A stretch of 64,000 bases of DNA, taken from Candidatus Bathyarchaeota archaeon. Lineage in GTDB: Archaea; Thermoproteota; Bathyarchaeia; 40CM-2-53-6. The notes beneath the pieces were generated by a model. The model had not been told where the DNA came from, did not search any database, and saw only the letters and a list, made by a program, of their open reading frames with translations. The position numbers and the translations under genes were made by a program. Positions 2,388 through 20,056 of this stretch are shown here, in pieces. Location: the NCBI GenBank assembly GCA_963706285.1, contig CAVPLU010000003.1:152808-216807 (forward strand), given 5' to 3'. How positions within the stretch are numbered: position 1 is the stretch's first letter; the number at the start of each line of letters is the position of its first letter.

Positions 2388-2537
2388 TGGTGCGGCCGCC
2401 GGGATTCGGACCCGGGTCGTTGGCTCTCTTCCCGTCAGTGGATGGAAGGCCAATGGACGCTTAGCTATGTCCTAGACCAGGTTATCCGCATGTTGCTCGT
2501 CAGATTTGGACGAGTGCATGCCCTAGACTACGGCCGC
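2388..2537 (-). tRNA. tRNA-Gly(TCC) with three introns (15/16, 27/28, 37/38); CCA encoded
   Basis: Exons 2537-2523, 2481-2467, 2452-2443, 2425-2388 join to a 78-nt cloverleaf (acceptor GCGGCCG/CGGCCGC, anticodon stem TTGGC/GCCAA, anticodon TCC). Each intron boundary forms a 4-bp helix with 3-nt bulges. Confidence 0.92.
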
Positions 2538-3551: not shown

Positions 3552-3863
3552 GGCTTCTCCAGACTCCCCCTACACGAGGTTAGCAATATGAGGATTGCGT
3601 CTGTAGATCGCATTTGATCTCTCATGAGACCGAGTGAAAGTGAATTGATGTAGAGTAACATCTAGCGGAAACATCTAATCACATGTACTCGTATTTTCGC
3701 GCGATCATTGATGATCAATACATTCACAATAATGCAAGGCGTTACTCAGCACGATTATGTGCACGCGCAAGAGCTTTTAGAGTGCAAGATCATTACAGAT
3801 GTGAATGTAATCAGCAGCGGTGAACCGCAACAATAGCACCGCAACATCGAGGAGGAGCATGGA

Positions 3864-4361
3864 ATGAGTGACCAAACACAAGTCGAAGTAGCAATCAAGT
3901 ACCGTGATGTTGAGAAGACAATCAAGGGCAATCCTGAAGAGGTCTTCAGAGGCGTCTTTCAATTCCTCTCCCAAACGATTCCTGCACTAGAGATCGTTTC
4001 AAGGATCACTCTCACCGTTGATTTCGCCGATTTCCTGAAAGAAGCTGCAGGTGTCTTTGCGATCACGCCAGAAGGCGTTGTCGTCCTCACACCATTGGAA
4101 GCTTTGACAGATCGCGAACTCGTTCTACTCTACTTGGTCAGAGGAAAGATTGCGCACGAAACTGGGAAATCGGAAAAGGAGACTCTCCTCGCATCGGATC
4201 TCATCTCGTTCACCGGCAAGGGATCCGGAACGGTGGCTGGAAGGCTTAGCGAGCTTTCGGGCGAGGGGGTAGTAGAAAGAACCGGGAAGGGTGAGTACCG
4301 GGTGACTACCTTCGGGCTGCATCGCTTCCGAAACGACGTGCTTCCGAAACTGAAGAGTTGA
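3864..4361 (+). CDS. Conserved archaeal protein with C-terminal winged helix
   Basis: TVAGRLSELSGEGVVERTGKGEYRVTTFG wHTH; preceded by GGAGG SD. Confidence 0.75.
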   Translation: MSDQTQVEVAIKYRDVEKTIKGNPEEVFRGVFQFLSQTIPALEIVSRITLTVDFADFLKEAAGVFAITPEGVVVLTPLEALTDRELVLLYLVRGKIAHETGKSEKETLLASDLISFTGKGSGTVAGRLSELSGEGVVERTGKGEYRVTTFGLHRFRNDVLPKLKS

Positions 4362-9434: not shown

Positions 9435-10145
9435 ATGAAGCGCAGATCAACAATGCCCGAGAAACGGGTCATCGTGACTGACATTGACTACACACTGACT
9501 GATGCCGAGCTTAGGCTTGACCTTGGCGCCGCTCAGAAGATCAGAGAACTCGAAGAGCGGGGAGTCAAAGTGATTCTGGATAGTGGAAGGAACCTAGCCG
9601 CAACTGGATCGCTCGCACAGCTCATAGGCACCTCTGGCTTTCTTGTGGCCGAGAACGGAGGTGTCATCGCCAAGTATCAGACACCGATCAAGATTCTTGG
9701 TAGAATTGAAGACGCCCGCGCTGCGCTACGAATGCTTAGGAAGAGAATTGGTAACAAAGTAAGAGAGAGACCCGATAGCCGGCTCGGGATGCGGTTGTCA
9801 AGCGTCTCGTTGGAACGATCGCTCAACCCCGAGAAAGCCAGAGAACTGCTACAGAAAAGCAAGATGGGAATTGATCTCATCGACACCGGTGTCACTTACG
9901 TGCTCTTGGACGCTCGCTGTGACAAGGGGAATGCTCTTGCTCAGCTGGGACGACTGGCGAAGATACCATTGACTCATTCTACGGGGATCGGTGACAACTA
10001 CAATGACCTCAGCCTTTTTCGCGAAGTTGCGTACAAGATTGCGGTCGGAAATGCTCCGGAAGAAGTTAGGCAAGAAGCCGATTACGTTTGCAGGCGCACC
10101 TTTGGCAGAGGCTTCCTAGAGGCGGTAGAGCATACGGGACTCTGA
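9435..10145 (+). CDS. HAD-superfamily phosphoglycolate phosphatase (SPP-like)
   Basis: DIDYTLTD motif I, SGRN, AENGG, DKG, IGDNYND. Confidence 0.85.
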   Translation: MKRRSTMPEKRVIVTDIDYTLTDAELRLDLGAAQKIRELEERGVKVILDSGRNLAATGSLAQLIGTSGFLVAENGGVIAKYQTPIKILGRIEDARAALRMLRKRIGNKVRERPDSRLGMRLSSVSLERSLNPEKARELLQKSKMGIDLIDTGVTYVLLDARCDKGNALAQLGRLAKIPLTHSTGIGDNYNDLSLFREVAYKIAVGNAPEEVRQEADYVCRRTFGRGFLEAVEHTGL

Positions 10146-10162
10146 ATGCGTCATCGCTTGAC

Positions 10163-10264
10163 CGCTGAGGTCCTCACTAGAGGACTATGCTCAGTAGTCT
10201 CCTCAACCTCAGGTTCCTCTTGCTGTAGGAGCCGCGGGAGAGGAGCTCATCAAGTACCTCGGCG
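10163..10264 (-). ncRNA. Candidate box C/D-like small RNA
   Basis: Minus strand: terminal stem GCCGAGGT/ACCTCAGC, box C-like TGATGA (10252-10247), D' CTGA (10212-10209), C' TGAGGA (10205-10200), D candidates CTGA (10194-10191) or GTGA (10177-10174). TTTTTATA box at 10309-10302. Confidence 0.45.
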
Positions 10265-10446
10265 CTCATGGTTGTTCAACAGGCGGCACAAGGGTGATCG
10301 CTATAAAAAGGGGTTATTGAGCGAATCGATATGTCGAATGTCGAGTGTCCGCGTCCGCATTTCCATGCGAGCCTGATTGTTCATGGTCGGATGGTCTGAG
10401 ATCCGCTCGGCGAGCATCAGCTTGCCTGTCGCCATCGAAATCGTGT

Positions 10447-11287
10447 CTATCGTGTCTTGCTCTTCTCTCTGCGCTTGTAGAGGTAGTAGACCGGTGCTCC
10501 GATCGCTACGACAGGTACTAGGGATACTGCGAGAATTATGATTCCGCGAAGGATTGTGAAGAATCCCTGGACAGCTATCTCGAATGTCTCGCCCCAGTTC
10601 ATTCCCGGCGGCATGAAGGCGGGGAGTGGCTCAGTCAATGTGACTGAGATGAGTGACATCTCAGCGTTGCCTTCGAGATAGTTGATTTGGCCTTGCAGGC
10701 TATCTATTTCGCCTCTAATTCTTCCGAGTTCGGTCTCCACTCGGAGGATATCTTCAACCGTTTTCGCCATGTCTAGGATTTCTTGGAGGCGTTCTTCCTG
10801 TTTCTGCAGGTTGTTGAGTCTAGCTTTCAGATCGGTATACTGTTGAGTGATATCTTCGCTGTTCGTACTTTCGTCGAGGACTTTCCCATAGGCTTCTATC
10901 TGCTGAATGGAAGAGCGAAACTGGTCTTTCGGTACTCGAATGGCTATCTGAGCTATCGTTTGTGTACCGTAGGTTGAGCGTGATGAGCTGGCAACGTATC
11001 CACCATTGCCCTCCGCAAGCCCTCTGATCCTCTGAAGTGTTCCTTGAATGTCCTTGGTCTCGAGCGATACGTGTCCATTGTATATCACTACTCTTTCTTG
11101 GGATGTCGGTTGATCCTTCGCGGCTCCGCCGAATGGCGATGCCGCCTCGGTCATCGTTGCGAAGCCTGGTGGCGACTCCGGTCCGCATGATCGTGTTGGA
11201 CTGTGAGTAGAACACGCCGATGAAATAGGAGGCAACCAGAAGAATCACGATGCCACACGAAGTGACGAGTATCTTTCTTCGACTCAT
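10447..11287 (-). CDS. DUF4349-family membrane-anchored protein (frameshift near 11190)
   Basis: N-terminal TM (MSRRKILV...) in one frame; ERVVIYNG...IRVP...EDITQQYTDLKARL coiled coil and C-terminal TM in another. Confidence 0.78.
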
Positions 11288-11693
11288 TTCTCATCAACTC
11301 TGCATTGGTGGAACATGAATAAAGCGCTAGACCTTCGAACGTGCCGTTCAGAAAATAGAACAACCCAGAAATCACGGACTACCTGCAGAGGTTGCCTCGG
11401 AATCTTATGAGTTGAAATACGAGTATTCTTGAGCCGATACGCCTCAAAATGGCACGTTCAAAAGGATGGGTTCCACCCAGAAGAAGGTGCACCCACCCGA
11501 GCGCCGCAGTCAGCAGAGAGGAACGTCAACACGGATCCAATCCACGAGGAGGCAGACGGCATATGCAGACTGCCTATGGCTATCGTCAAGCGTTATCTAC
11601 GTCGGCGGCAAATGAGTTCTCTTCATTCACTAGAGAGTCAGTATCTCGCAACCTATATCCGCCCAGGTTCTTTGAGCGGATGGATGACCACTA

Positions 11694-12662
11694 GTGAGGA
11701 TCAAACCGGTGAAACCCAAAACGGCTCTTGATTGGCTGCTGAACAAGGACCAGCCATCCATCAGGTATCTTGCACTGACACAGCTGCTAGGGAGAACTCA
11801 GGACGATCCCGAAGTTCAATCAGCAGAGCGGATGATCTCTAAGATCGGATGGGCTGCGGACATCCTTGCCAAGCAGATGCCCGGCGGATCGTGGGTTGAT
11901 GAAGAGCGCCTGTACGTCCCGAAGTACGTGTCTACAAACTGGATGCTGCTCATCCTATCAGACCTAGGTCTAACAAAGGAGAATCCACAGATCTCCAAGG
12001 CCTGCGAGTTATGGATCAGAAGATTTGCAAAAAGAGACGGCGGATTTGGCGCGGACGGATGGAGCAAAAGCCATCTATGCATAGTGGGCAACACCGCGCG
12101 TGCCTTGGTGAAGTTCGGCTACGCCGACCACCCCAAAGTAACAAGCGCGTTCGAATGGCTGGTGAAGAATCAAGCGAAGAAGGGCGGCTGGTCATGTTTC
12201 GGGTCGGGGAGAAACTTAGACTCGTGGGAAGGCATGAGCGCATTCGCCGTATACCCACGCCAGAAGTGGACCAGAAGCATGAAACACTCCGTCGAAATGG
12301 GGGCAGAGTTCTATCTGGAAAGAGAAATGCACAAGCAAGGAGCACGCTACCGACCTTGGTACCGCTTCCACTACCCAGTCCACTATTATTACGATTTGCT
12401 CGTCGGCCTTGATTTCATCACAGCCCTAGGATACGGCGACGACAAGAGGCTGAAGGATGCGCTCTCACTACTCACAAAGAAGAGACGACGCGACGGGAAA
12501 TGGCTCCTCGACGCCGTCCATCCCGACCTTGAGGGATCTATGGCCAAATGGTACGAAAAAAGAAAGCCAACTTCATTTGCGCTCGAAAAACCGGGAGAGC
12601 CAAGCAAGATGATTACCCTCAGAGCTATGCAGGTGCTGAACAGGTCGAACAATTCGACATAG
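11694..12662 (+). CDS. Prenyltransferase/squalene-cyclase-like alpha-barrel protein
   Basis: QW-like repeats (KQMPGGSW, KNQAKKGGWSC, RRDGKW), FHYPVHYYYDLL, EKPGEPSKMITLRA. Confidence 0.72.
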   Translation: MRIKPVKPKTALDWLLNKDQPSIRYLALTQLLGRTQDDPEVQSAERMISKIGWAADILAKQMPGGSWVDEERLYVPKYVSTNWMLLILSDLGLTKENPQISKACELWIRRFAKRDGGFGADGWSKSHLCIVGNTARALVKFGYADHPKVTSAFEWLVKNQAKKGGWSCFGSGRNLDSWEGMSAFAVYPRQKWTRSMKHSVEMGAEFYLEREMHKQGARYRPWYRFHYPVHYYYDLLVGLDFITALGYGDDKRLKDALSLLTKKRRRDGKWLLDAVHPDLEGSMAKWYEKRKPTSFALEKPGEPSKMITLRAMQVLNRSNNST

Positions 12663-12676
12663 TGCTACTAAACGAA

Positions 12677-12920
12677 TGGTGGGGCCGGTGGGATTTGAAC
12701 CCACGACTTCTGGCCTCGCGGCTTTCGCTCGCGGGGACGCCAGCGCCCCAGGTTCACCGCCGTGTGCGGCTCTGGTATCCATTTGGCGACAATCGTTGTC
12801 TAGACCAAGCTTTTCGCGCACTTTTGTCAGTTCTAGCCCTTTCTAATTGACACTTCCATTATGGAAGCAAGTGCTAGACGAATGGGCTCCCTCTGATGTT
12901 CGATAGAAGGGATCGGCCCC
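12677..12920 (-). tRNA. tRNA-Pro(GGG) with five introns (7/8, 13/14, 20b/21 or 21/22, 30/31, 45/46); CCA encoded
   Basis: Six exons (7, 6, 10, 10, 15, 31 nt) join to a 79-nt cloverleaf: acceptor GGGGCCG/CGGCCCC, anticodon stem CCAGC/GCTGG, loop CTGGGGC, T-arm GTGGG-TTCAAAT-CCCAC. Every insert has BHB-like geometry. Confidence 0.88.
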
Positions 12921-13510
12921 ACGGTCTAGACTCCAGCCCCAGCGCTTGTAGCAACGTATCTACGTTTTAGCTTTGCGAAGAATCCGATAATGTTGAGTTG
13001 ACCTGTTTAGACCCTCATGTGCTCCTCACTCAAGCTTGGCTCGCCGCCTTGTTTTCCATCTGTTTCGTCATGTTTGTGGAAAACACAAGAACTGACCGCA
13101 ATCGAAATGGTAGAGATCAGTTAGAAGCGAGGTGAAGATTCTGCCCTTTTTTGGATAGTTCGACTCTTTCAGAGCGAAGTTCCAGTAATATGAGGGATGT
13201 TTCTGACTGCGATCGAGTGGTATGAGGCGGATCATGCCGTTCAAGGTCGGTCTTAATCCTCAGAACCACGTCCAAAGTGTCTTGAAGTCTCCGTTGAGTA
13301 TTTCCAAAGTACGTCCAACGACCGTGTTGGCTTGTTGACGATCGCAAATTCATGGTTAGTTTTCTGTTACGCGAAAGCTACTCAAGCCAAACCTAAATTC
13401 GGTTTGAATTCAAGAAAGCGCGGATGATTCATCAACGTCACACACATGGCAACGACTCCTCGCGTTCCATCATTCTTTCCTGACAAGTCTATTGATTGCC
13501 GTCACGAGCT

Positions 13511-14419
13511 CTAGACGGCTTGGGGTGTAGCATGTTGTTCTAGGAGGAGTGTCGGGTGGATCTTTTCGGCGTAAGCGAGAAGATCCTTGTACATGTCGAC
13601 GAAGTCAAATGAGAACGGGCAGACTCCCACGCATAGCCCGCATAGTGTGCATGCGGTCGTCTGTTCAGCGATCGACTTAATCTCACTCGCCGGGAGCGAC
13701 TTCTTGGAAAGCATCATGAGGTATCTTCTCAACTTCACTACTGGAGCTTCACTCTCAGCTTCGTCTGTTGCTTCATGAAGCGGACAGACTTCAATGCATC
13801 TTCCACAACGTCCACACGCGTCACTGAATCTCAGGAATACTGCCTGCCTCTTCTCAGCGCTCGTCAACCGCCATACCACTGTAGCCAACGCGTGCCTTAC
13901 AGCTCCGCCAAGAAACAGGGACGCAACGACCCAAACATACACGCTTGTCAGCTGGATAGCGGCAACCCACTTGAACGGATACGCGGTGAAGCTTTCAACT
14001 GCTACCACACCAAACACAGCGAACGCCTGCAATGTACCACTGACCGCGATGATTACCATGAAAGCTAAGTCCAGGTAGAACACTTTTCCATAGGCGAACC
14101 TGAAGTATCGGTTTGTCAAGTATCTTACAACAAATCCGATTCCGCCGATAACCAAAAAGACGCCGGTAATCCCATGCGCCCATACTATCAGCCAACCATA
14201 ACTATTGAAGACGCTCGCTAGAGCCGGTAGAAAGTTAGATGTCTCTTCAATTGCTCCTGTAATGATGGTTCCGTAGAGTCCGATATGAAATAGGAAATCA
14301 GCCATACCTACAATGAGGGACCTTCTGAAGAGCAGATCTAACAGACCTGGCTTCTCGAGACTAAACGAGGAGAGCCTGTACTTTCCTGCCTGAGATGCCG
14401 ACGACTCTCTACTCTTCAT
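13511..14419 (-). CDS. NarI/HdrE-like multi-TM domain fused to a 2x[4Fe-4S] (HdrC-like) domain
   Basis: About 4 TM helices with His residues (FHIG, WAHG, VRHA), then CGRCGRCIEVCP and CTLCGLCVGVCP. ATG overlaps the upstream stop (ATGA). Confidence 0.75.
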   Translation of the reverse strand: MKSRESSASQAGKYRLSSFSLEKPGLLDLLFRRSLIVGMADFLFHIGLYGTIITGAIEETSNFLPALASVFNSYGWLIVWAHGITGVFLVIGGIGFVVRYLTNRYFRFAYGKVFYLDLAFMVIIAVSGTLQAFAVFGVVAVESFTAYPFKWVAAIQLTSVYVWVVASLFLGGAVRHALATVVWRLTSAEKRQAVFLRFSDACGRCGRCIEVCPLHEATDEAESEAPVVKLRRYLMMLSKKSLPASEIKSIAEQTTACTLCGLCVGVCPFSFDFVDMYKDLLAYAEKIHPTLLLEQHATPQAV

Positions 14420-15162
14420 GGAGTCCCCTTCGGCTGACCTCTTAACCACTTAGCAACGTAGAGTGTTGTTCCGAGCACCATCGGAATCCACGCTAATCTA
14501 GAATACTTCATGAGGTCGGTGACCCACCTCGAATCGGCAGGATATTCATTCTTAACAACGGTCACGTCGGGGCTGTTCGCGATCTTCTCAAACGTATCCC
14601 GCGTGACGACGTATAGTGTGCTAGTTTCTCCCGAATAGAGTAGGACACCGTTCTTCTGCTCAGCGATTTTGGCTCCCTCCTCCAGTTTAGTATCATACAG
14701 GCCGAAGGATCTTGTGTTTGTAGGGCAGACATCGACGCAGTACGGATTCAGGCCCTTCTCTATTCGCTTGTAGCACATGTCACATTTGTAGATCCTTTTC
14801 TCTATTGGATTGTAGGTTATGGATTGGAATGGGCATTGGCTTACGCAGAGGAGGCATCCGATACATTTGTCCCTATCATACGTTACAGGGCCATAGTCAA
14901 GCTGAGTTATGGCATGAGTAATGCAAGCCTTGGCGCAGGGAGCATCAACACAGTGCAAACAGAGTTGAGGGACAGGGATTGAATCGCCGACCCAGGACAC
15001 CTTAGTATAGGTAGTTCCCACAGCGGACCAACCGAAGGATTCCTTATGGTACGTTTCACACCCAGCGATGCATTTCATGCAACCGATGCAGTTTGAAACG
15101 TCAACAAGGATAGCGTACTTTGGTTTCTGCGCTGACGCAGGTGAAATACTCAGTTGTTCCAA
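14416..15162 (-). CDS. Four-cluster Fe-S protein (DmsB/NrfC/HybA/FdnH-like) with C-terminal membrane anchor
   Basis: CIGCMKCIAGC, CLHCVDAPCAKAC, CIGCLLCVSQCPF, KCDMC...PYCVDVCPT; hydrophobic C-terminal helix. Confidence 0.85.
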   Translation of the reverse strand: MEQLSISPASAQKPKYAILVDVSNCIGCMKCIAGCETYHKESFGWSAVGTTYTKVSWVGDSIPVPQLCLHCVDAPCAKACITHAITQLDYGPVTYDRDKCIGCLLCVSQCPFQSITYNPIEKRIYKCDMCYKRIEKGLNPYCVDVCPTNTRSFGLYDTKLEEGAKIAEQKNGVLLYSGETSTLYVVTRDTFEKIANSPDVTVVKNEYPADSRWVTDLMKYSRLAWIPMVLGTTLYVAKWLRGQPKGTP

Positions 15163-15258
15163 TGAGGAATAACCCTGCTCCCGTGGCCGCGGAATACTGC
15201 AGAAAACGCCTTCTCGTAAAGGAGCGTAACCCTGACTGATGTTTCTCGGACGTCTTGT

Positions 15259-16728
15259 TCACTTCCTCTCTTTCGAAGCAAGATCGTACAATATCGTTTC
15301 AAGTGCAGTGCGAATAGTTTCCGGCGGTGGAGCGCATCCTGGAATAGTGAGATCCACCGTCACATAATCACTCAGAGGCCTTATCTCATCCTTCACCTCC
15401 GGGATCTCTTCCAGCGCTACGGGTTTGCGCGATTTGCGTGTGATGCTCTCAACGAGGCGTCGGTCGCCCGTGGGCAATACGCCGAAGACTGGACATGCGC
15501 CAAAGGCTACAAGATACCTTGCTTTCTCTCTCGCCTCTTTTACAGCTCTAACGTCTTCCTCTGTTCTGATCGACCCTACGACCAGTGCCACGTCGACAGG
15601 CTCGTATGCTTTCGCGCTCGTCACACTCAGCGCGAGGTCAACCTTGTGAGATAGAATATTGAGAACATCCTCTCTGAAGTTTGCTATCGTGCTCTCGCAA
15701 ACGCCGCAAAGAGCACACTTGACAACGGCTACATTCAGCTTTCCAGTTCTTCCTATCAGAAGCCGTCTTCGTCTGTCGTCATAGGATTTGGCAAATTGAA
15801 CAGACCCCAGAAAGGCGACCGCGATGGTAATCCATGGAACCCACTGCTTTGCCAGAACGTCGAAAGGAATCTCTTGTGTCGGTGGCGAAGGAAACGCCAA
15901 TGTTACAGAGACGGCGAATAGGGCATCATCAGCATCTGATCCATCCTGCACATGTCCAGCATGTATCAACAAGCCAAGCGTACTGTTAGGCATCTCGAAT
16001 TCTCCACTCAGAAGGATCGTTCCGTTTTTGGGGACTGCCTCTTCAGAATACACTTTGGAAAAGACTTGCTCCCCCGTGGCGCGGTCTGTTACATACACGT
16101 AGAGTCTATGGGATTCCGAGCCTGTATTCCGCAAGGTTACCTTCATCCCAACTGACCCTCCCGTCTTCGCTACCGAAGGAGAGTCCACGCTGACTATCGA
16201 TGCAGAACCACTCAAAACAGAACCGGAAGCGGACTTCACCCTAACGAGTGTCGATAAAATGTTACCGTCAGCGGCTAATGATATGACATACGTTCCAGGC
16301 TTGTCAGGAACCACCACTTTGAAGAGAGCGGTTACGACCCCAGGCCGAGAATCTTGATCCTGCGGAGAATCATCCTCGACCTTTTGAGGGTCGAATTTGA
16401 ATTGCACGTTGTCGGTCATGTCGGGCATCCATGCTATCACAGATGGAAGAATCCCCACAATTTGCTGTGGAGGCCGCTGGATCTCAATTAGAAATGAGAA
16501 AGATTTTCCACCGTCTGCATCAACAAGGAAAACGTTGTCTTCGCTGTCCCACTCAGTACCGTTAAGCCAGATGCCATCGCCAGTATTGTGACAATCACAT
16601 CCAGTCCCAATCATATAGCCCCAGGAAGGGTGAAGGAAAGGAGTTGCAGGTGAGACAAAGTTGCCAATGATGATCGCTGCAATAGCCAACGCGATCAGTC
16701 CAGTCATTGGTCTGGAAAAATGGGTCAT
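15259..16728 (-). CDS. Fusion protein: signal peptide, exported CxCH/Ig-like region, TM helix, hydrogenase small subunit (Oxidored_q6) domain
   Basis: N-terminal hydrophobic leader, GCDCH, beta-rich CARDB-like segment (VTLRNTG), TM WVPWITIAVAFLG, then CALCGVC, VVGSI, VAFGACPVFG, DLTIPGCAPPP. Confidence 0.78.
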   Translation of the reverse strand: MTHFSRPMTGLIALAIAAIIIGNFVSPATPFLHPSWGYMIGTGCDCHNTGDGIWLNGTEWDSEDNVFLVDADGGKSFSFLIEIQRPPQQIVGILPSVIAWMPDMTDNVQFKFDPQKVEDDSPQDQDSRPGVVTALFKVVVPDKPGTYVISLAADGNILSTLVRVKSASGSVLSGSASIVSVDSPSVAKTGGSVGMKVTLRNTGSESHRLYVYVTDRATGEQVFSKVYSEEAVPKNGTILLSGEFEMPNSTLGLLIHAGHVQDGSDADDALFAVSVTLAFPSPPTQEIPFDVLAKQWVPWITIAVAFLGSVQFAKSYDDRRRRLLIGRTGKLNVAVVKCALCGVCESTIANFREDVLNILSHKVDLALSVTSAKAYEPVDVALVVGSIRTEEDVRAVKEAREKARYLVAFGACPVFGVLPTGDRRLVESITRKSRKPVALEEIPEVKDEIRPLSDYVTVDLTIPGCAPPPETIRTALETILYDLASKERK

Positions 16729-17110
16729 CGAGGTGTTTCCTGCGCCATAGCCCGACCATGCAGTTGAAGTGCAACTATTATTTGCTGCGGTCACGAGAAA
16801 AGGCACGTCAAGATCAAGCTAGACGACGGCTCCTACGCTCGGCCTCAGTTGTCCCGTAATGATAATAGGCTTTTGCTCGGCCCTCTCAAAGCTCTGCGAC
16901 AAGTTCGATTGGATGGATGCTTGATAATTGGCAGACGAACTCACTTTCGATTTTTTTGAAGCGCCTTCGCCTAGTGCGCTAAAGAGAGGTCACGCGGACA
17001 GTGACGATCCGCGACGTGAAATGCTCCAATCCTCCTCATGGGACAAAATGCTGTTCAACTCTATGTCTTATATGACGACAAAGGAGTATGCTCCTACTGA
17101 GGTGTGTGCG

Positions 17111-17776
17111 TTGTTTTGTTCTTCTTGCGGTCAGCCAATTCCGGAAGGTTCCAGTTTCTGCACCAATTGTGGAGCTAGGATTGGTGCTACTCAGACGCCG
17201 GTCCCTGCCCCTGTAGCAGTCCAGCCGACTGCTGTCGGTTCTCCATTTGCGGGCAGAGAATTCATTATTGAGCAGAAGATTGTGGCGATGCGTGACACGT
17301 TCGGAATCAAAGACAGGAATGGTAACTTGCTTGCCTATGTGAAACGGAAGATAGCAAGTATAGGCCCACAGTTCTGGTTCGAATCACCTGACGGTACACG
17401 CCTTGGCGAAGTGAAAGGCAAAGTCGTCACAGTGCGACCAACCTTCGAAATCTACGATACTCAAAACCAGTTGCTGGCTGTAGTGAAGAAGAAAGTGATG
17501 AAGCTCATGGGTTCTGAGTGGTGGCTGGAAAACTCGTCCGGGCAGGAAATCGGGAGAATCAAAGGAAACATAACTGCACATGATTTCGCAATCCAATCAC
17601 CCACAGGCGCACCGATCGCTCAGATCACCAAGAAATGGGTCACCGTACGCGACTCCTATGGAGTTGAGATACTAGGCTCAGAGCTCGATCCATACGTGAT
17701 CTTAGCTTACGCTATCGCTATGGATCACGTTGAGTACAAGCAATCGTCAGGAGTCAAGATTGGCTTCGGCGTCTAG
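17111..17776 (+). CDS. Zinc-ribbon plus LURP-one/Tubby-C (scramblase-like) protein
   Basis: FCSSCG...FCTNCG, then IEQKIVAMRDTFGI...KKWVTVRDSYGVEI; TTG start after SD GAGGTG. Confidence 0.78.
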   Translation: MFCSSCGQPIPEGSSFCTNCGARIGATQTPVPAPVAVQPTAVGSPFAGREFIIEQKIVAMRDTFGIKDRNGNLLAYVKRKIASIGPQFWFESPDGTRLGEVKGKVVTVRPTFEIYDTQNQLLAVVKKKVMKLMGSEWWLENSSGQEIGRIKGNITAHDFAIQSPTGAPIAQITKKWVTVRDSYGVEILGSELDPYVILAYAIAMDHVEYKQSSGVKIGFGV

Positions 17777-17862
17777 CCACTCTCTGCAAGCACATGCACC
17801 CTTATGCGGCAAATGCCTCCGCGAAGCAAGATCGTCGGCAGTCTCTTCTTGTTCGACATGTC

Positions 17863-18630
17863 TCAGAGCCCAGCGATGAGTCTGATCTTCTGGAAGGACT
17901 GATCATCGGGATTATGCTTGTAGTCCCGCAGTGCACGGACGAGCGACGCCTTTCTTCGCCATCGTAGAATGGTTCGTAGGCGTCTCGCGGGCCCGCCTCC
18001 AATCAGCAGATATTGAGAAATCGAGGTCACATTCGAAGGTCGCCGCTTGTCGCTTGCACTCTCGAAGTCAACAATTCGTGGAATATCGCCCGATTCCACG
18101 AGAACGTTCTTTGGAGCTTCACTAAGCTCACCGTGATCCAGAGAAATCCTATCCAGGCGGTAACAGTCATCTAGGAGCCCGCCGATTACTCGGCGAACTC
18201 TTCTCTTGCATCCAGTCTTCGGCAGGAGAGCAACCCATCGGTTGAGAGGAAGCCCATCGATGAGCTCCATTACGAGGAAATTGTCGCTCTGGGCGAGAAG
18301 TCTTGGGCCCACGTTCACAGAATTTGCAAGGCGAAGCATGTCTGCCTCATGACTCATATCTCGCCGGTCGGCGTCTACTCGTCTGATCTTTAAGGCGGCG
18401 GTCTGGCCACGTATCAGGGCTTTTGTGACAATGCCCACACATCCCTTTCCCAGCACTCTAGCTCGCCCAATCTGGTGCGTTCCTGAAAGTTCGATAGCGT
18501 CGACTCCGATGGAAGCCAACTCCTGCAATCTCGTCTCAACTAGGCGTGCCTCTGGCTTCGGGTAACAGAGAACAGCGGCCAAGTCGCTTGACTGAATCGG
18601 TTTCTGGGATAGAGGTATGGATTCACTCAA
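17863..18630 (-). CDS. Archaeal atypical Ser/Thr protein kinase (RIO/Bud32-like)
   Basis: LGKGCVGIV, AALKIRR, HGELSEAPKNVL, IVDFESAS; start overlaps the cca stop. Confidence 0.82.
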   Translation of the reverse strand: MSESIPLSQKPIQSSDLAAVLCYPKPEARLVETRLQELASIGVDAIELSGTHQIGRARVLGKGCVGIVTKALIRGQTAALKIRRVDADRRDMSHEADMLRLANSVNVGPRLLAQSDNFLVMELIDGLPLNRWVALLPKTGCKRRVRRVIGGLLDDCYRLDRISLDHGELSEAPKNVLVESGDIPRIVDFESASDKRRPSNVTSISQYLLIGGGPARRLRTILRWRRKASLVRALRDYKHNPDDQSFQKIRLIAGL

Positions 18631-20056
18631 GCCACGCAGGCCTTCCCTTGAGGAATTTCGTGAGGAATTGAGCCGCATCATGATTCTTTCTGTAGAAGTC
18701 GATAATGGCGGGGCCTGCAAGAACGTGATGTCTTCGCTTCAGGACAGGAGCGATCTTGCTTGCTACCCCCACGTTTCTGCCGCCGTCGCGGATTTCAGAT
18801 TGTAGGAGTTCGACGGCGTTTGTGTTCTCGCGGAGTTGATCTACTGCCCATCTATCATCGTCAACCCATGGACCGGAAATCGTTCGCTTGTCGTTCAGGT
18901 GCTTGTGGAGAAAAAGTTGAGACGCTTGAGATCTGGTAACATGTGGGCCGAAGTGCTTTCTCATTGGGGGTAAGGTGAGGCTTTCCAGTTCGAACAGGAT
19001 GACATTGAGATCTTTCTCATTACTCCAAGATGCCGAACGGGTGACATTGAAACCCTCTTGTCTGAGGAGGTTTCGCAGTGCTCTCTCAGTTCTGTACAAT
19101 TGACTCCAGAGAACATCAACTACCGCGTCCACTCGGCCCAGCTCTATGGCTAGAAGGTTCCAGTCGCGCTGCTGCATTTTGTGGCGAAACCTTGTCACAC
19201 TTAGGGGTGAGATCTTTCGATCGGTAAAGAATGTCCTACTGGGTTTGGTGCAGAAAGCACGGGAGGCCGCAACGAACTCCCAAAGTCGCCGACCGGATAT
19301 GGATGCAGCTAGGTTTCTGCCGCGGTCCACGGGATCGACTACTGCTAGCGGCGCGTTGAAGAGGTCGACCATTTCTCCCTCTCTGCCTTCATAGTAACGT
19401 TCCAGGTCGATTGTGATTGGGGCTTTCCATGATTGTGCCTGCTCAAGTGTTCTCACGAATGAGCCATAGTACATGATCAGGGTCTCGCAGAGCATGCCGC
19501 TGAAGCCTGATACTTTCACGTCGGCGCCGTAGACTCCGATTCTCTTCAAGAACGCCTTGAGGAGCCTAACCTGGTTTCTCTGATTCGAGTCAAGATGTGA
19601 GATGACGTATTCTGTGTGGTAGGGCGTGCGGTCTGTCGCGCTTCGCCACTCGCCCCGCGCCACATTGTAACATGGCACAACGTTAACACGCACATTTTCG
19701 ACGTGAGTCTCAAGATAGGGGTGTTCAGCATATCGTTCTATGATCGTGTATCCTTCTAGGGCTCGTCGAGCAATACCAAGGCAACGTTTCTCAAGATCAG
19801 CCCTGCTCAGCGAGGCGGGAACGCGCAGAAAGATGTCGATGTCAGCGTCTCCTTTCAGCCATGTGTCCTTTGCAACGGATCCATCAATTCTAACCTCTGC
19901 CTCGAGTCTATTCTTCTCGGCCTCGATGACGAGTTTGGTTCTCAGTTTCTCCGCTATGTCATTCACAGTTTTCCTTTCGGTGTCTGACGGGACTATCAGA
20001 CGTGTGACGGAATCGCAGACGCCAACGGCTTTCTCCAATCTCTCACAACTTGTCAA
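18623..20056 (-). CDS. cca: Archaeal class I CCA-adding enzyme
   Basis: GSVAKDTWLKGDADIDIF, YAEHPY, SATDRTPYHT, GFSGMLCETLI. Confidence 0.95.
   Translation of the reverse strand: MTSCERLEKAVGVCDSVTRLIVPSDTERKTVNDIAEKLRTKLVIEAEKNRLEAEVRIDGSVAKDTWLKGDADIDIFLRVPASLSRADLEKRCLGIARRALEGYTIIERYAEHPYLETHVENVRVNVVPCYNVARGEWRSATDRTPYHTEYVISHLDSNQRNQVRLLKAFLKRIGVYGADVKVSGFSGMLCETLIMYYGSFVRTLEQAQSWKAPITIDLERYYEGREGEMVDLFNAPLAVVDPVDRGRNLAASISGRRLWEFVAASRAFCTKPSRTFFTDRKISPLSVTRFRHKMQQRDWNLLAIELGRVDAVVDVLWSQLYRTERALRNLLRQEGFNVTRSASWSNEKDLNVILFELESLTLPPMRKHFGPHVTRSQASQLFLHKHLNDKRTISGPWVDDDRWAVDQLRENTNAVELLQSEIRDGGRNVGVASKIAPVLKRRHHVLAGPAIIDFYRKNHDAAQFLTKFLKGRPAWLE

Follow-up and report, generated by a model that had tools for sequence, protein, structure and literature searches.

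Why does a tRNA gene carry, directly upstream of its first exon, a second copy of its own 5' end? The question is raised by a tRNA-Pro(GGG) gene in a 64,000-nucleotide stretch of a Candidatus Bathyarchaeota archaeon genome (GenBank assembly GCA_963706285.1, contig CAVPLU010000003.1, positions 152,808 to 216,807; hereafter the window, to which all bare coordinates refer). The bases concerned, 12940 to 12921 of the minus strand (GGGGCTGGAGTCTAGACCGT), lie directly upstream of exon 1. We consider it probable, at roughly 70%, that they form a transcribed 5' leader of the tRNA which serves as a cis-acting folding helper for the bulge-helix-bulge (BHB) motif of intron 1. This reading is based on sequence, BHB geometry, conservation, covariation, intron co-occurrence, promoter spacing and thermodynamic prediction, and within it we infer where transcription starts, that the strands pair in vivo and in which order processing runs.

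The leader and the five-intron tRNA-Pro(GGG) gene

A first-pass annotation of this DNA had described the leader as a copy of the tRNA's own 5' end, and its first 15 bases do match GGGGCCGTCGTCTAG at 12 of 15 positions. GGGGCCGTCGTCTAG corresponds to exon 1 spliced to the start of exon 2 in this gene, and it is contiguous in six orthologues of the same genus (L007-L012). The segment GGGGCTGG can pair with the 3' acceptor strand CCGGCCCC (C65-C72) through eight pairs, one of which is G.U. The segment GTCTAGACC is the exact complement of GGTCTAGAC, which spans the 5' splice site of intron 3, located after 12802. Both of these pairings had been proposed in the first pass. Since GTCTAGAC is its own reverse complement, to call the leader a "copy" or a "complement" of the D-stem bases is one and the same statement, and beyond the direct repeat of the 8-mer the GTCTAGACC/GGTCTAGAC match gains only an outer C/G pair. 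Over both strands of the 64 kb, the 15-mer with up to three mismatches was found three times, against 1.2 matches expected. The other two matches lie in another tRNA (2523-2537) and in a displaced old 5' end of tRNA-Pro (16819-16833). By arithmetic from the 1.2 expected, the chance of such a match on the same strand within about 30 bases upstream is about 3 in 10,000.

The gene occupies 12920-12677 of the minus strand and comprises six exons and five BHB introns, which were located by a BHB motif scan followed by splice-and-test. The introns are at positions 7/8, 13/14, 20/21, 30/31 and 45/46. All five show a central helix with 4/4 pairs flanked by 3-base bulges, and the inner helices of introns 1-5 measure 6, 6, 5, 4 and 2 bp. 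Once the introns are removed, the 76-nt product forms a cloverleaf and is called tRNA-Pro(GGG) by ARAGORN. Exons 1-3 are very short (7, 6 and 10 bases). The features are as follows.

5' leader, 12921..12940, minus strand: 12940-12933 (GGGGCTGG) mimics the 5' acceptor strand; 12931-12923 (GTCTAGACC) is complementary to 12806-12798 (GGTCTAGAC)
Exon 1, 12914..12920, minus strand: tRNA positions 1-7, GGGGCCG
Intron 1, 12882..12913, minus strand: 32 nt at 7/8; BHB central helix GGGC/GCCC, 6-bp inner helix; absent in orthologues L007-L012
Exon 2, 12876..12881, minus strand: positions 8-13, TCGTCT
Intron 2, 12812..12875, minus strand: 64 nt at 13/14; BHB TCGT/GCGA, inner helix GCACTT/AAGTGC; contains the palindrome CTTCCATAATGGAAG; absent in L007-L012
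Exon 3, 12802..12811, minus strand: AGCTTGGTCT
Intron 3, 12782..12801, minus strand: 20 nt, in the D loop; BHB TGGT/GCCA; inner helix GACAA/TTGTC covaries in L013
Exon 4, 12772..12781, minus strand: from splice-and-test
Intron 4, 12753..12771, minus strand: 19 nt at 30/31; BHB TACC/GGTG; inner hairpin variable among relatives
Exon 5, 12738..12752, minus strand: contains the anticodon GGG
Intron 5, 12708..12737, minus strand: 30 nt at 45/46; BHB CTGG/CCAG; inner helix covaries in L013 and L014
Exon 6, 12677..12707, minus strand: T arm, 3' acceptor strand CGGCCCC (12687-12681), discriminator A and encoded CCA

This layout agrees overall with that of the first-pass annotation. The exception is intron 2, for which a clean BHB is obtained only at 13/14 (5' site after 12876, 3' site after 12812); the mature sequence is unchanged by the correction. 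Introns 3-5 are common to relatives, and their inner helices covary. Because the introns interrupt the gene, it is missed by ARAGORN, which called no tRNA in the unspliced window, and by Rfam, which over 12300-13400 returned no tRNA match and only sub-threshold matches, such as tmRNA at 23.4 bits over the acceptor and T arm. The BHB scan is permissive and yields many false motifs; the intron calls are based on the stricter splice-and-ARAGORN test. A whole-genome run of ARAGORN in intron mode, in which multi-intron genes were misassigned, was set aside. The tRNA at 2523-2537 (minus strand), whose 5' end reads GCGGCCGTAGTCTAG, is missed by the plain mode of ARAGORN; the intron mode gives a gene with a 65-base intron at this place (G000:C3:155195-155344).

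The genome (G000), from Bathyarchaeia, is assembled into 21 contigs that total 2.13 Mb; its completeness is 89% and its contamination 7.5%. With regard to the processing machinery, it contains two splicing endonuclease matches to PF01974 above the cut-off, at G000:C12:149004-149243 and C6:75200-75433, which lie in open frames of 200 and 181 aa. It also encodes an RNase P RNA (RNaseP_arch, 183.7 bits against a gathering score of 84).

Predicted folding of the precursor

The BHB of intron 1 uses G2-C5, as had been proposed: its central helix GGGC/GCCC, accompanied by 3-base bulges and a 6-bp inner helix, pairs these bases of the acceptor strand with bases at the intron's 3' end. In the folding predictions, this central helix had a probability of 0.97 with the leader and 0.00 without it. 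With the leader present, the leader paired with the 3' acceptor strand at a probability of 1.00; without it, the acceptor stem formed at 1.00. When 100 shuffled leaders were used instead, the mean probability of the BHB helix was 0.21, and three of the 100 reached the observed 0.97. The minimum-energy fold with the leader corresponds to the arrangement suggested in the first pass, with GGGGCUGG on the 3' acceptor strand and GUCUAGACC on GGUCUAGAC; these two leader helices enclose the hairpins of introns 1 and 2.

Comparable predictions were obtained for three further tRNA-Pro precursors, in which the central helix had probabilities of 0.96 (L063), 0.98 (L058) and 0.92 (L066) with the leader and 0.00 without it. 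Pairing between the leader and the 3' strand ranged from 0.75 to 1.00 across the four. L058 and L066 are metagenome genes that share only GGGGCT with the present leader, and their leaders do not contain GTCTAGAC. In models of a tRNA-Met, a tRNA-Arg, a tRNA-Cys and a class II tRNA of the same genome, which are described below, the acceptor stem fell from 0.97-1.00 without the leader to 0.00 with it.

These predictions favour the mechanism put forward in the first pass, that of a surrogate strand which frees G2-C5. The first 7-8 bases of the leader (GGGGCUGG) would imitate the 5' acceptor strand and would be base-paired to its 3' counterpart. The real exon 1 would thereby be kept from the acceptor stem, leaving G2-C5 free for the GCCC at the 3' end of intron 1, and this pairing would build the BHB that the splicing endonuclease cuts at 7/8. 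The second part of the leader (GUCUAGACC) may clamp exon 3 and thus present the hairpins of introns 1 and 2 together. After splicing, exon 1, having lost its intron partner, would displace the leader and the acceptor stem would form. RNase P would then remove the leader, so that 5' maturation would follow splicing.

Leader copies in other tRNAs of the genome

We listed 32 tRNA-like loci of the genome by their T arm and acceptor complementarity. In four of them, the 45 bases upstream of exon 1 contain a 7-mer able to pair 7/7 with the 3' strand of the same tRNA. These are tRNA-Pro (GGGGCTG), tRNA-Arg-CCG (GGGCGGG, followed by ctt and exon 1 GGGCGGG), tRNA-Cys-GCA (GCCGGGG, then aaaat and GCCGGGG) and a class II tRNA (GCCGGGA, then acacct and GCCGGGA). 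A fifth case is tRNA-Met-CAT, in which GGGCCC adjoins the GGGCCCG of exon 1. Covariation between leader and acceptor, for which the first-pass annotation had suggested a look at orthologous loci, is thus found within a single genome, as five different tRNAs each carry a copy of their own acceptor strand.

The first intron of these genes lies at 7/8 (Pro), 8/9 (Cys and class II) or 9/10 (Arg and Met), according to the splice test for Pro, Met and Arg and to a reading by hand for Cys and the class II tRNA, whose BHB motifs are relaxed. With a first intron at 7/8-9/10, the central BHB helix is built with acceptor bases. None of the remaining 27 loci has a 7/7 leader window, the best being 6/7, and those resolved by the splice test have their first intron at position 13 or later, with the exception of one ambiguous locus. 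Shuffled leaders gave a mean of 0.50 loci with a 7/7 window (P = 0.001 for at least four). When leaders were set against the 3' strand of a tRNA with a different acceptor, 18 of 920 pairings matched.

Near-identical tRNA loci occur in this assembly on the contig pairs C4/C20, C6/C7 and C4/C5, and a 2-kb stretch is doubled (L064 1-1982 matches both C4 and C5 at 93-94%). These doubled loci fit the 7.5% contamination or a mixture of strains.

Conservation among relatives

The six orthologues L007-L012 have a contiguous 5' end without introns 1 and 2 and without the leader copy; the best 7-mer in their leaders forms 5-6 of 7 pairs. The 7/8-intron pattern was found in two of 59 genomes of the family (G000 and G001) and in nine relevant stretches among 15 metagenome matches. 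The other six metagenome matches, together with eight of nine matches in the genome collection, were bacterial tRNA-like sequences or chance matches in coding regions and were excluded from the counts.

Thirteen copies of the unit that contains the leader and the first exons (the cassette, described below) were collected with a pattern that required exon 1. Their first seven leader bases are GGGGCTG in six copies, GGGGCCG in four, and GGGGCTT, GCGGCCG and GGGGCAC in one each; the spacer and the interior of the intron vary. The expectation that relatives with the 7/8 intron retain the leader is borne out by 11 of the 13 cassette copies, whose first seven bases form 6-7 of 7 pairs. The tRNA-Pro genes of L015 and L016, described below, have the intron and no GGGGCYG.

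In 25 tRNA-Cys genes of the family, which come from two genera, all seven columns of the leader copy are invariant (25/25), the 20 upstream bases have a mean identity of 0.54 to the commonest base, the first 12 intron bases reach 0.56, and 15 different spacers separate copy and exon. In genus g1, the 9/10 intron and the leader copy occur together in all ten tRNA-Arg genes; mean identity is 0.97 in the copy versus 0.67 upstream. In genus g4, all 16 tRNA-Arg genes are without the 9/10 intron and without the copy, the best leader match being at most 5/7.

A separate element was noted close to the 5' end of the orthologues. At bases -12 to -5 before tRNA-Pro in L007-L012, and at 16841-16848 of the window, GGCCGAGC is kept even without the 7/8 intron. 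It is complementary, with G.U pairs, to GCTTGGTC of the D loop, and this pairing is also offered by the leaders of L015, L016 and L058.

Promoter position and transcript contigs

One further feature bears on the start of the transcript.

Promoter-like box, 12963..12974, minus strand: AAAGCTAAAACG, resembling the AAnnCTTTATnn-like box; read by eye

The ordinary tRNA genes of this genome have a AAnnCTTTATnn-like box about 36-25 bases before +1. In tRNA-Pro, the box lies 33-22 bases before the leader copy (12940), and in all five leader-copy genes it stands, by eye, at the usual distance from the leader copy and not from exon 1. The box is similar in G001:C238 and L063. This spacing predicts a transcription start at about 12941 +/- 3, upstream of 12930, the limit that the first pass had set for its idea.

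Six of the 24 listed runs were recorded as RNA, represented by contigs only, and four were placed on the locus. Contig X17 is unspliced over 12679-12891. Contigs X15 (identical) and X18 (close) match introns 3-5 up to 12811; upstream of this point they carry other variants with the 7/8 intron, in which exon 2 is joined directly to exon 3 without intron 2. The variant in X15 matches a displaced older 5' end in L063.

The cassette and the 3,995-bp insertion

Comparison with the related genome G001 indicates how the present 5' end was acquired. Contig G001:C170 is collinear with the window at 9755-12663, 12677-12811, 16807-16928 and 17052-18861, so that 3,995 extra bases lie inside the tRNA gene of G000.

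Insertion, 12812..16806, no strand assigned: 3,995 bp relative to G001:C170; boundary ambiguous by a 14-base repeat
Displaced old tRNA-Pro 5' end, 16807..16833, minus strand: tRNA positions 1-25 and the duplicated core; of its 27 bases, 3 are changed

The insert contains the promoter, the leader, exons 1-2 and introns 1-2, together with four reading frames, in which Pfam gave Fe-S and Oxidored_q6 matches or none: a frame of 515 aa with Oxidored_q6, one for a Fer4_11 protein, one for a membrane protein of Fe-S type and one of 78 aa. This cargo resembles redox and membrane genes, and the 515-aa frame has no orthologue among nine genomes of the same genus. On the far side, the old promoter (box at 16861-16874) and positions 1-25 of the old tRNA survive at 16874-16807. 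A tRNA segment is repeated at both ends of the insert (16833-16807 and 12920-12798, with a 14-base overlap), and the gene is rebuilt from the incoming copy. A point new to this analysis is thus that the promoter, leader, exons 1-2 and introns 1-2 evidently came with the insertion and displaced the old 5' end. The leader belongs to a cassette of about 145 bp that consists of leader, exons 1-3 and introns 1-2; accompanied by its own promoter and some 3.8 kb of cargo, it appears to have entered the native gene and taken the place of the 5' end there.

Copies of the cassette share only these approximately 145 bases, from 12941, one base before the leader, to GGTCTAGAC; their flanks are unrelated. 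In L064, which is of the G001 type, the cassette is flanked by FEN1 and PCMT; the corresponding place in G000 is taken up by 5 kb of other DNA. In L063, it is joined to tRNA-Pro as in G000, with different cargo, and an older displaced 5' end (739-800) comes with a leader copy of its own and with another intron 1. The metagenome contig L059 contains three copies (936-1073, 3859-3935 and 3933-4060 of the oriented contig). Two of them meet head to head exactly at the middle of the palindrome CTTCC-AGAAC-GGAAG in intron 2, and this fusion looks like a site-specific inversion or a recombination point. For the 117 bases that precede the cassette in G001:C238, alignment scores against the G000 insert and against G000:C4 do not exceed those of shuffled sequence.

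Two origins of the cassette were considered and rejected. As to a viral origin, the cassette pattern gave no match in viral contigs; a 19-base exon 2/intron 2 pattern gave one match there, which lies inside a 1114-aa frame with no cassette around it and was attributed to chance. The orphan cassette of G001 is also no 5' half of a split tRNA, since G001 has no separate 3' half: its single tRNA-Pro(GGG) 3' part is inside a complete gene, and a second match lies in a coding region.

At the place of the orphan cassette between FEN1 and PCMT, the approximately 5-kb stretch of G000 (G000:C4:80996-86033, minus strand) ends in a tRNA-Leu(CAG)-like 3' fragment that extends from the anticodon loop to the acceptor (about 81100-81200). 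No matching 5' strand for this fragment was found within 520 bases.

Alternative explanations for the leader

The history of this locus lends itself to another explanation, namely that the leader is a functionless relic: a decayed earlier exon 1 (positions 1-9 plus GTCTAGAC, with the D loop lost) left by recombination at GTCTAG repeats. The promoter is at the canonical distance from the leader copy, as if the copy had once been +1. The locus has been displaced twice (16833-16807 in the window and L063:739-800), the breakpoints lie directly after GTCTAG(AC), and L059 holds decayed cassette copies. A relic would decay, however, and a leader copy that stays invariant while its neighbours drift is not expected of a neutral one: the 7-mer is identical in all 25 tRNA-Cys genes and nearly so in the ten tRNA-Arg genes of genus g1, yet its neighbours average 0.54-0.67. 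The copy also covaries with acceptor identity in five tRNAs and vanishes together with the intron in tRNA-Arg. We regard a relic devoid of function as unlikely; a relic origin and a folding function can both be true.

Equally unlikely, in our view, is that the leader is part of a recombination site, with GTCTAGAC at both ends of the cassette (leader and exon 3) being bound or crossed by a recombinase and the likeness to the tRNA being a by-product of targeting the D arm. This would suit the cassette homology of about 145 bp, which begins exactly at the leader and ends at GGTCTAGAC between unrelated flanks, as well as the copies at unrelated loci (L064 between FEN1 and PCMT, three in L059), the head-to-head pair in the intron 2 palindrome and the clean insertion in G000 with its 14-base repeat. 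On the other hand, Pfam detected no integrase or recombinase family in the four insert frames, the eight frames of L059 or the 12 frames of L064, L070 and L063, and the cassette is in no viral contig. A recombination site also leaves the GGGGCYG part unexplained, and no such palindrome is present at the leader copies of the other four tRNAs (Arg, Cys, Met and class II), which it does not explain either.

That the upstream copy is itself an alternative or the true exon 1, with a transcript from 12940 being cut after GGGGCUG and joined to exon 2 so that a G.U forms at 6:67 and RNase P is unneeded, is very improbable: the leader GGGC can pair with the GCCC of intron 1 and share its 3' splice site (5' site after 12934, central helix 4/4, outer helix 2) and the predicted start falls on its first G, but the upstream motif has no inner helix versus 6 bp at the downstream site, only the downstream copy precedes the T expected at position 8 in all five genes, and the leader 7-mer varies (GGGGCTG, GGGGCCG, GGGGCTT, GGGGCAC) while exon 1 is invariant in the 13 copies, which were collected with a pattern that required it.

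Several observations weigh against the interpretation of the leader as a folding helper. The sequences compared are kin, and since they share ancestry, the counts across genomes are not counts of independent events and overstate independence. The list of 32 loci contains duplicates from the contaminated assembly and misses genes with a disrupted T arm. In the Arg and Cys models the leader frees exon 1, but the expected central helix reaches only 0.03 and 0.00; this may be because the energy model penalises bulges or because the register of the relaxed Cys motif is wrong. The predicted helix between leader and exon 3 would stand in the way of the intron 3 BHB, and G000 and L063 are identical in this part. 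In the RNA-library contigs neither a transcript start nor a spliced junction is seen, and 12892-12940 is uncovered; they are uninformative either way.

The last of these observations concerns the tRNA-Pro genes of L015 (genus g2) and L016 (genus g3), which have the 7/8 intron and no GGGGCYG within 45 bases upstream, the best matches being 5/7 and 4/7. The partner of their central helix is GCCT. Their leaders carry GACC(A/G)AGC, which is complementary to the D-loop bases GCTTGGTC, and in the model the probability of the central helix still rises from 0.00 to 0.79-0.82 once at least 20 bases of leader are present; the partner of the 3' acceptor strand is in that case a GGGGCC within intron 5. 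A surrogate acceptor strand may therefore also reside in an intron, as these models suggest for intron 5 of L015 and L016. Since both genes do without the mimic, an acceptor mimic in the leader is one of several ways to unlock exon 1 and no requirement.

Discussion

The arrangement described here belongs within the known archaeal BHB introns, and the rule that such an intron near the acceptor goes with a copy of the acceptor strand in the leader holds in five tRNAs of the genome and in its family. The closest known case is that of the non-canonical and multiple BHB introns of the Thermoproteales, which, like those described here, are spliced by protein at non-canonical positions in a helix-bulge-helix-bulge-helix motif (PMC4033280, PMC4090602). 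These introns accompany a broad-specificity splicing endonuclease (PMC4033280, PMC4090602). In contrast to the five introns found here, the 2014 review gives a maximum of three per archaeal tRNA (PMC4033280), and the passages on these introns in the two sources mention no acceptor-copying leader (PMC4033280, PMC4090602).

Split and permuted tRNAs, as in Nanoarchaeum equitans and Cyanidioschyzon, resemble the present case in that a sequence outside the tRNA pairs to give the splice-site structure and is later removed (PMC4090602, PMC4033280). As described in the relevant passages of these sources, the BHB helix is there built by the leader itself, either in trans or across the permuted ends, whereas here the leader would compete in cis for the 3' acceptor strand. 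A full-text literature search for leader copies and for Bathyarchaeota tRNA introns, which covered openly accessible articles, found no acceptor-copying leader; leader pairing appeared only for split and permuted tRNAs.

With regard to the insertion, integrative elements that target tRNA genes (as cited in PMC3218864) provide a partial parallel, as they too insert inside a tRNA gene, have a repeat at both ends, rebuild the gene and leave an old fragment that decays. The present insert differs in that it has no integrase that Pfam could find, carries redox- and membrane-like cargo, and brings in a copy that replaces the 5' end, with promoter, leader and two introns. Randau and Soll hypothesised that introns and splits shield tRNA genes from integration (as summarised in PMC3218864). 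Their hypothesis ties tRNA disruption to mobile DNA, as is the case here, but in the present locus the introns arrive with the insert and do not pre-exist in the target.

Beyond this gene, a broader proposal can be made, which we put forward tentatively and hold to be somewhat less likely true than false. Acceptor-mimic leaders would constitute a general, undescribed class of cis folding elements that license BHB introns at 7/8-9/10 in archaeal pre-tRNAs; at the same time, complete 5' cassettes (promoter, mimic leader, mini-exons and introns) would travel from locus to locus and be substituted for the 5' ends of tRNA genes, so that one tRNA gains two introns at once and reaches five.

Introns adjacent to the acceptor pose a folding problem, in which a 4-bp splice helix is set against a 7-bp, G+C-rich acceptor stem, and this problem is unaddressed in the searchable literature. 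An acceptor-copying leader would be a simple solution to this competition. For gene finders, the rule argues against calling the upstream copy exon 1. For tRNA processing, it leads to the prediction that splicing at 7/8-9/10 precedes maturation of the 5' end. Finally, the origin of archaeal tRNA introns is debated, with intron transposition (as discussed in PMC4033280) and integration at tRNA genes (as discussed in PMC3218864) among the proposals, and the cassette insertion offers a concrete example of one-step intron gain in an archaeal tRNA gene.

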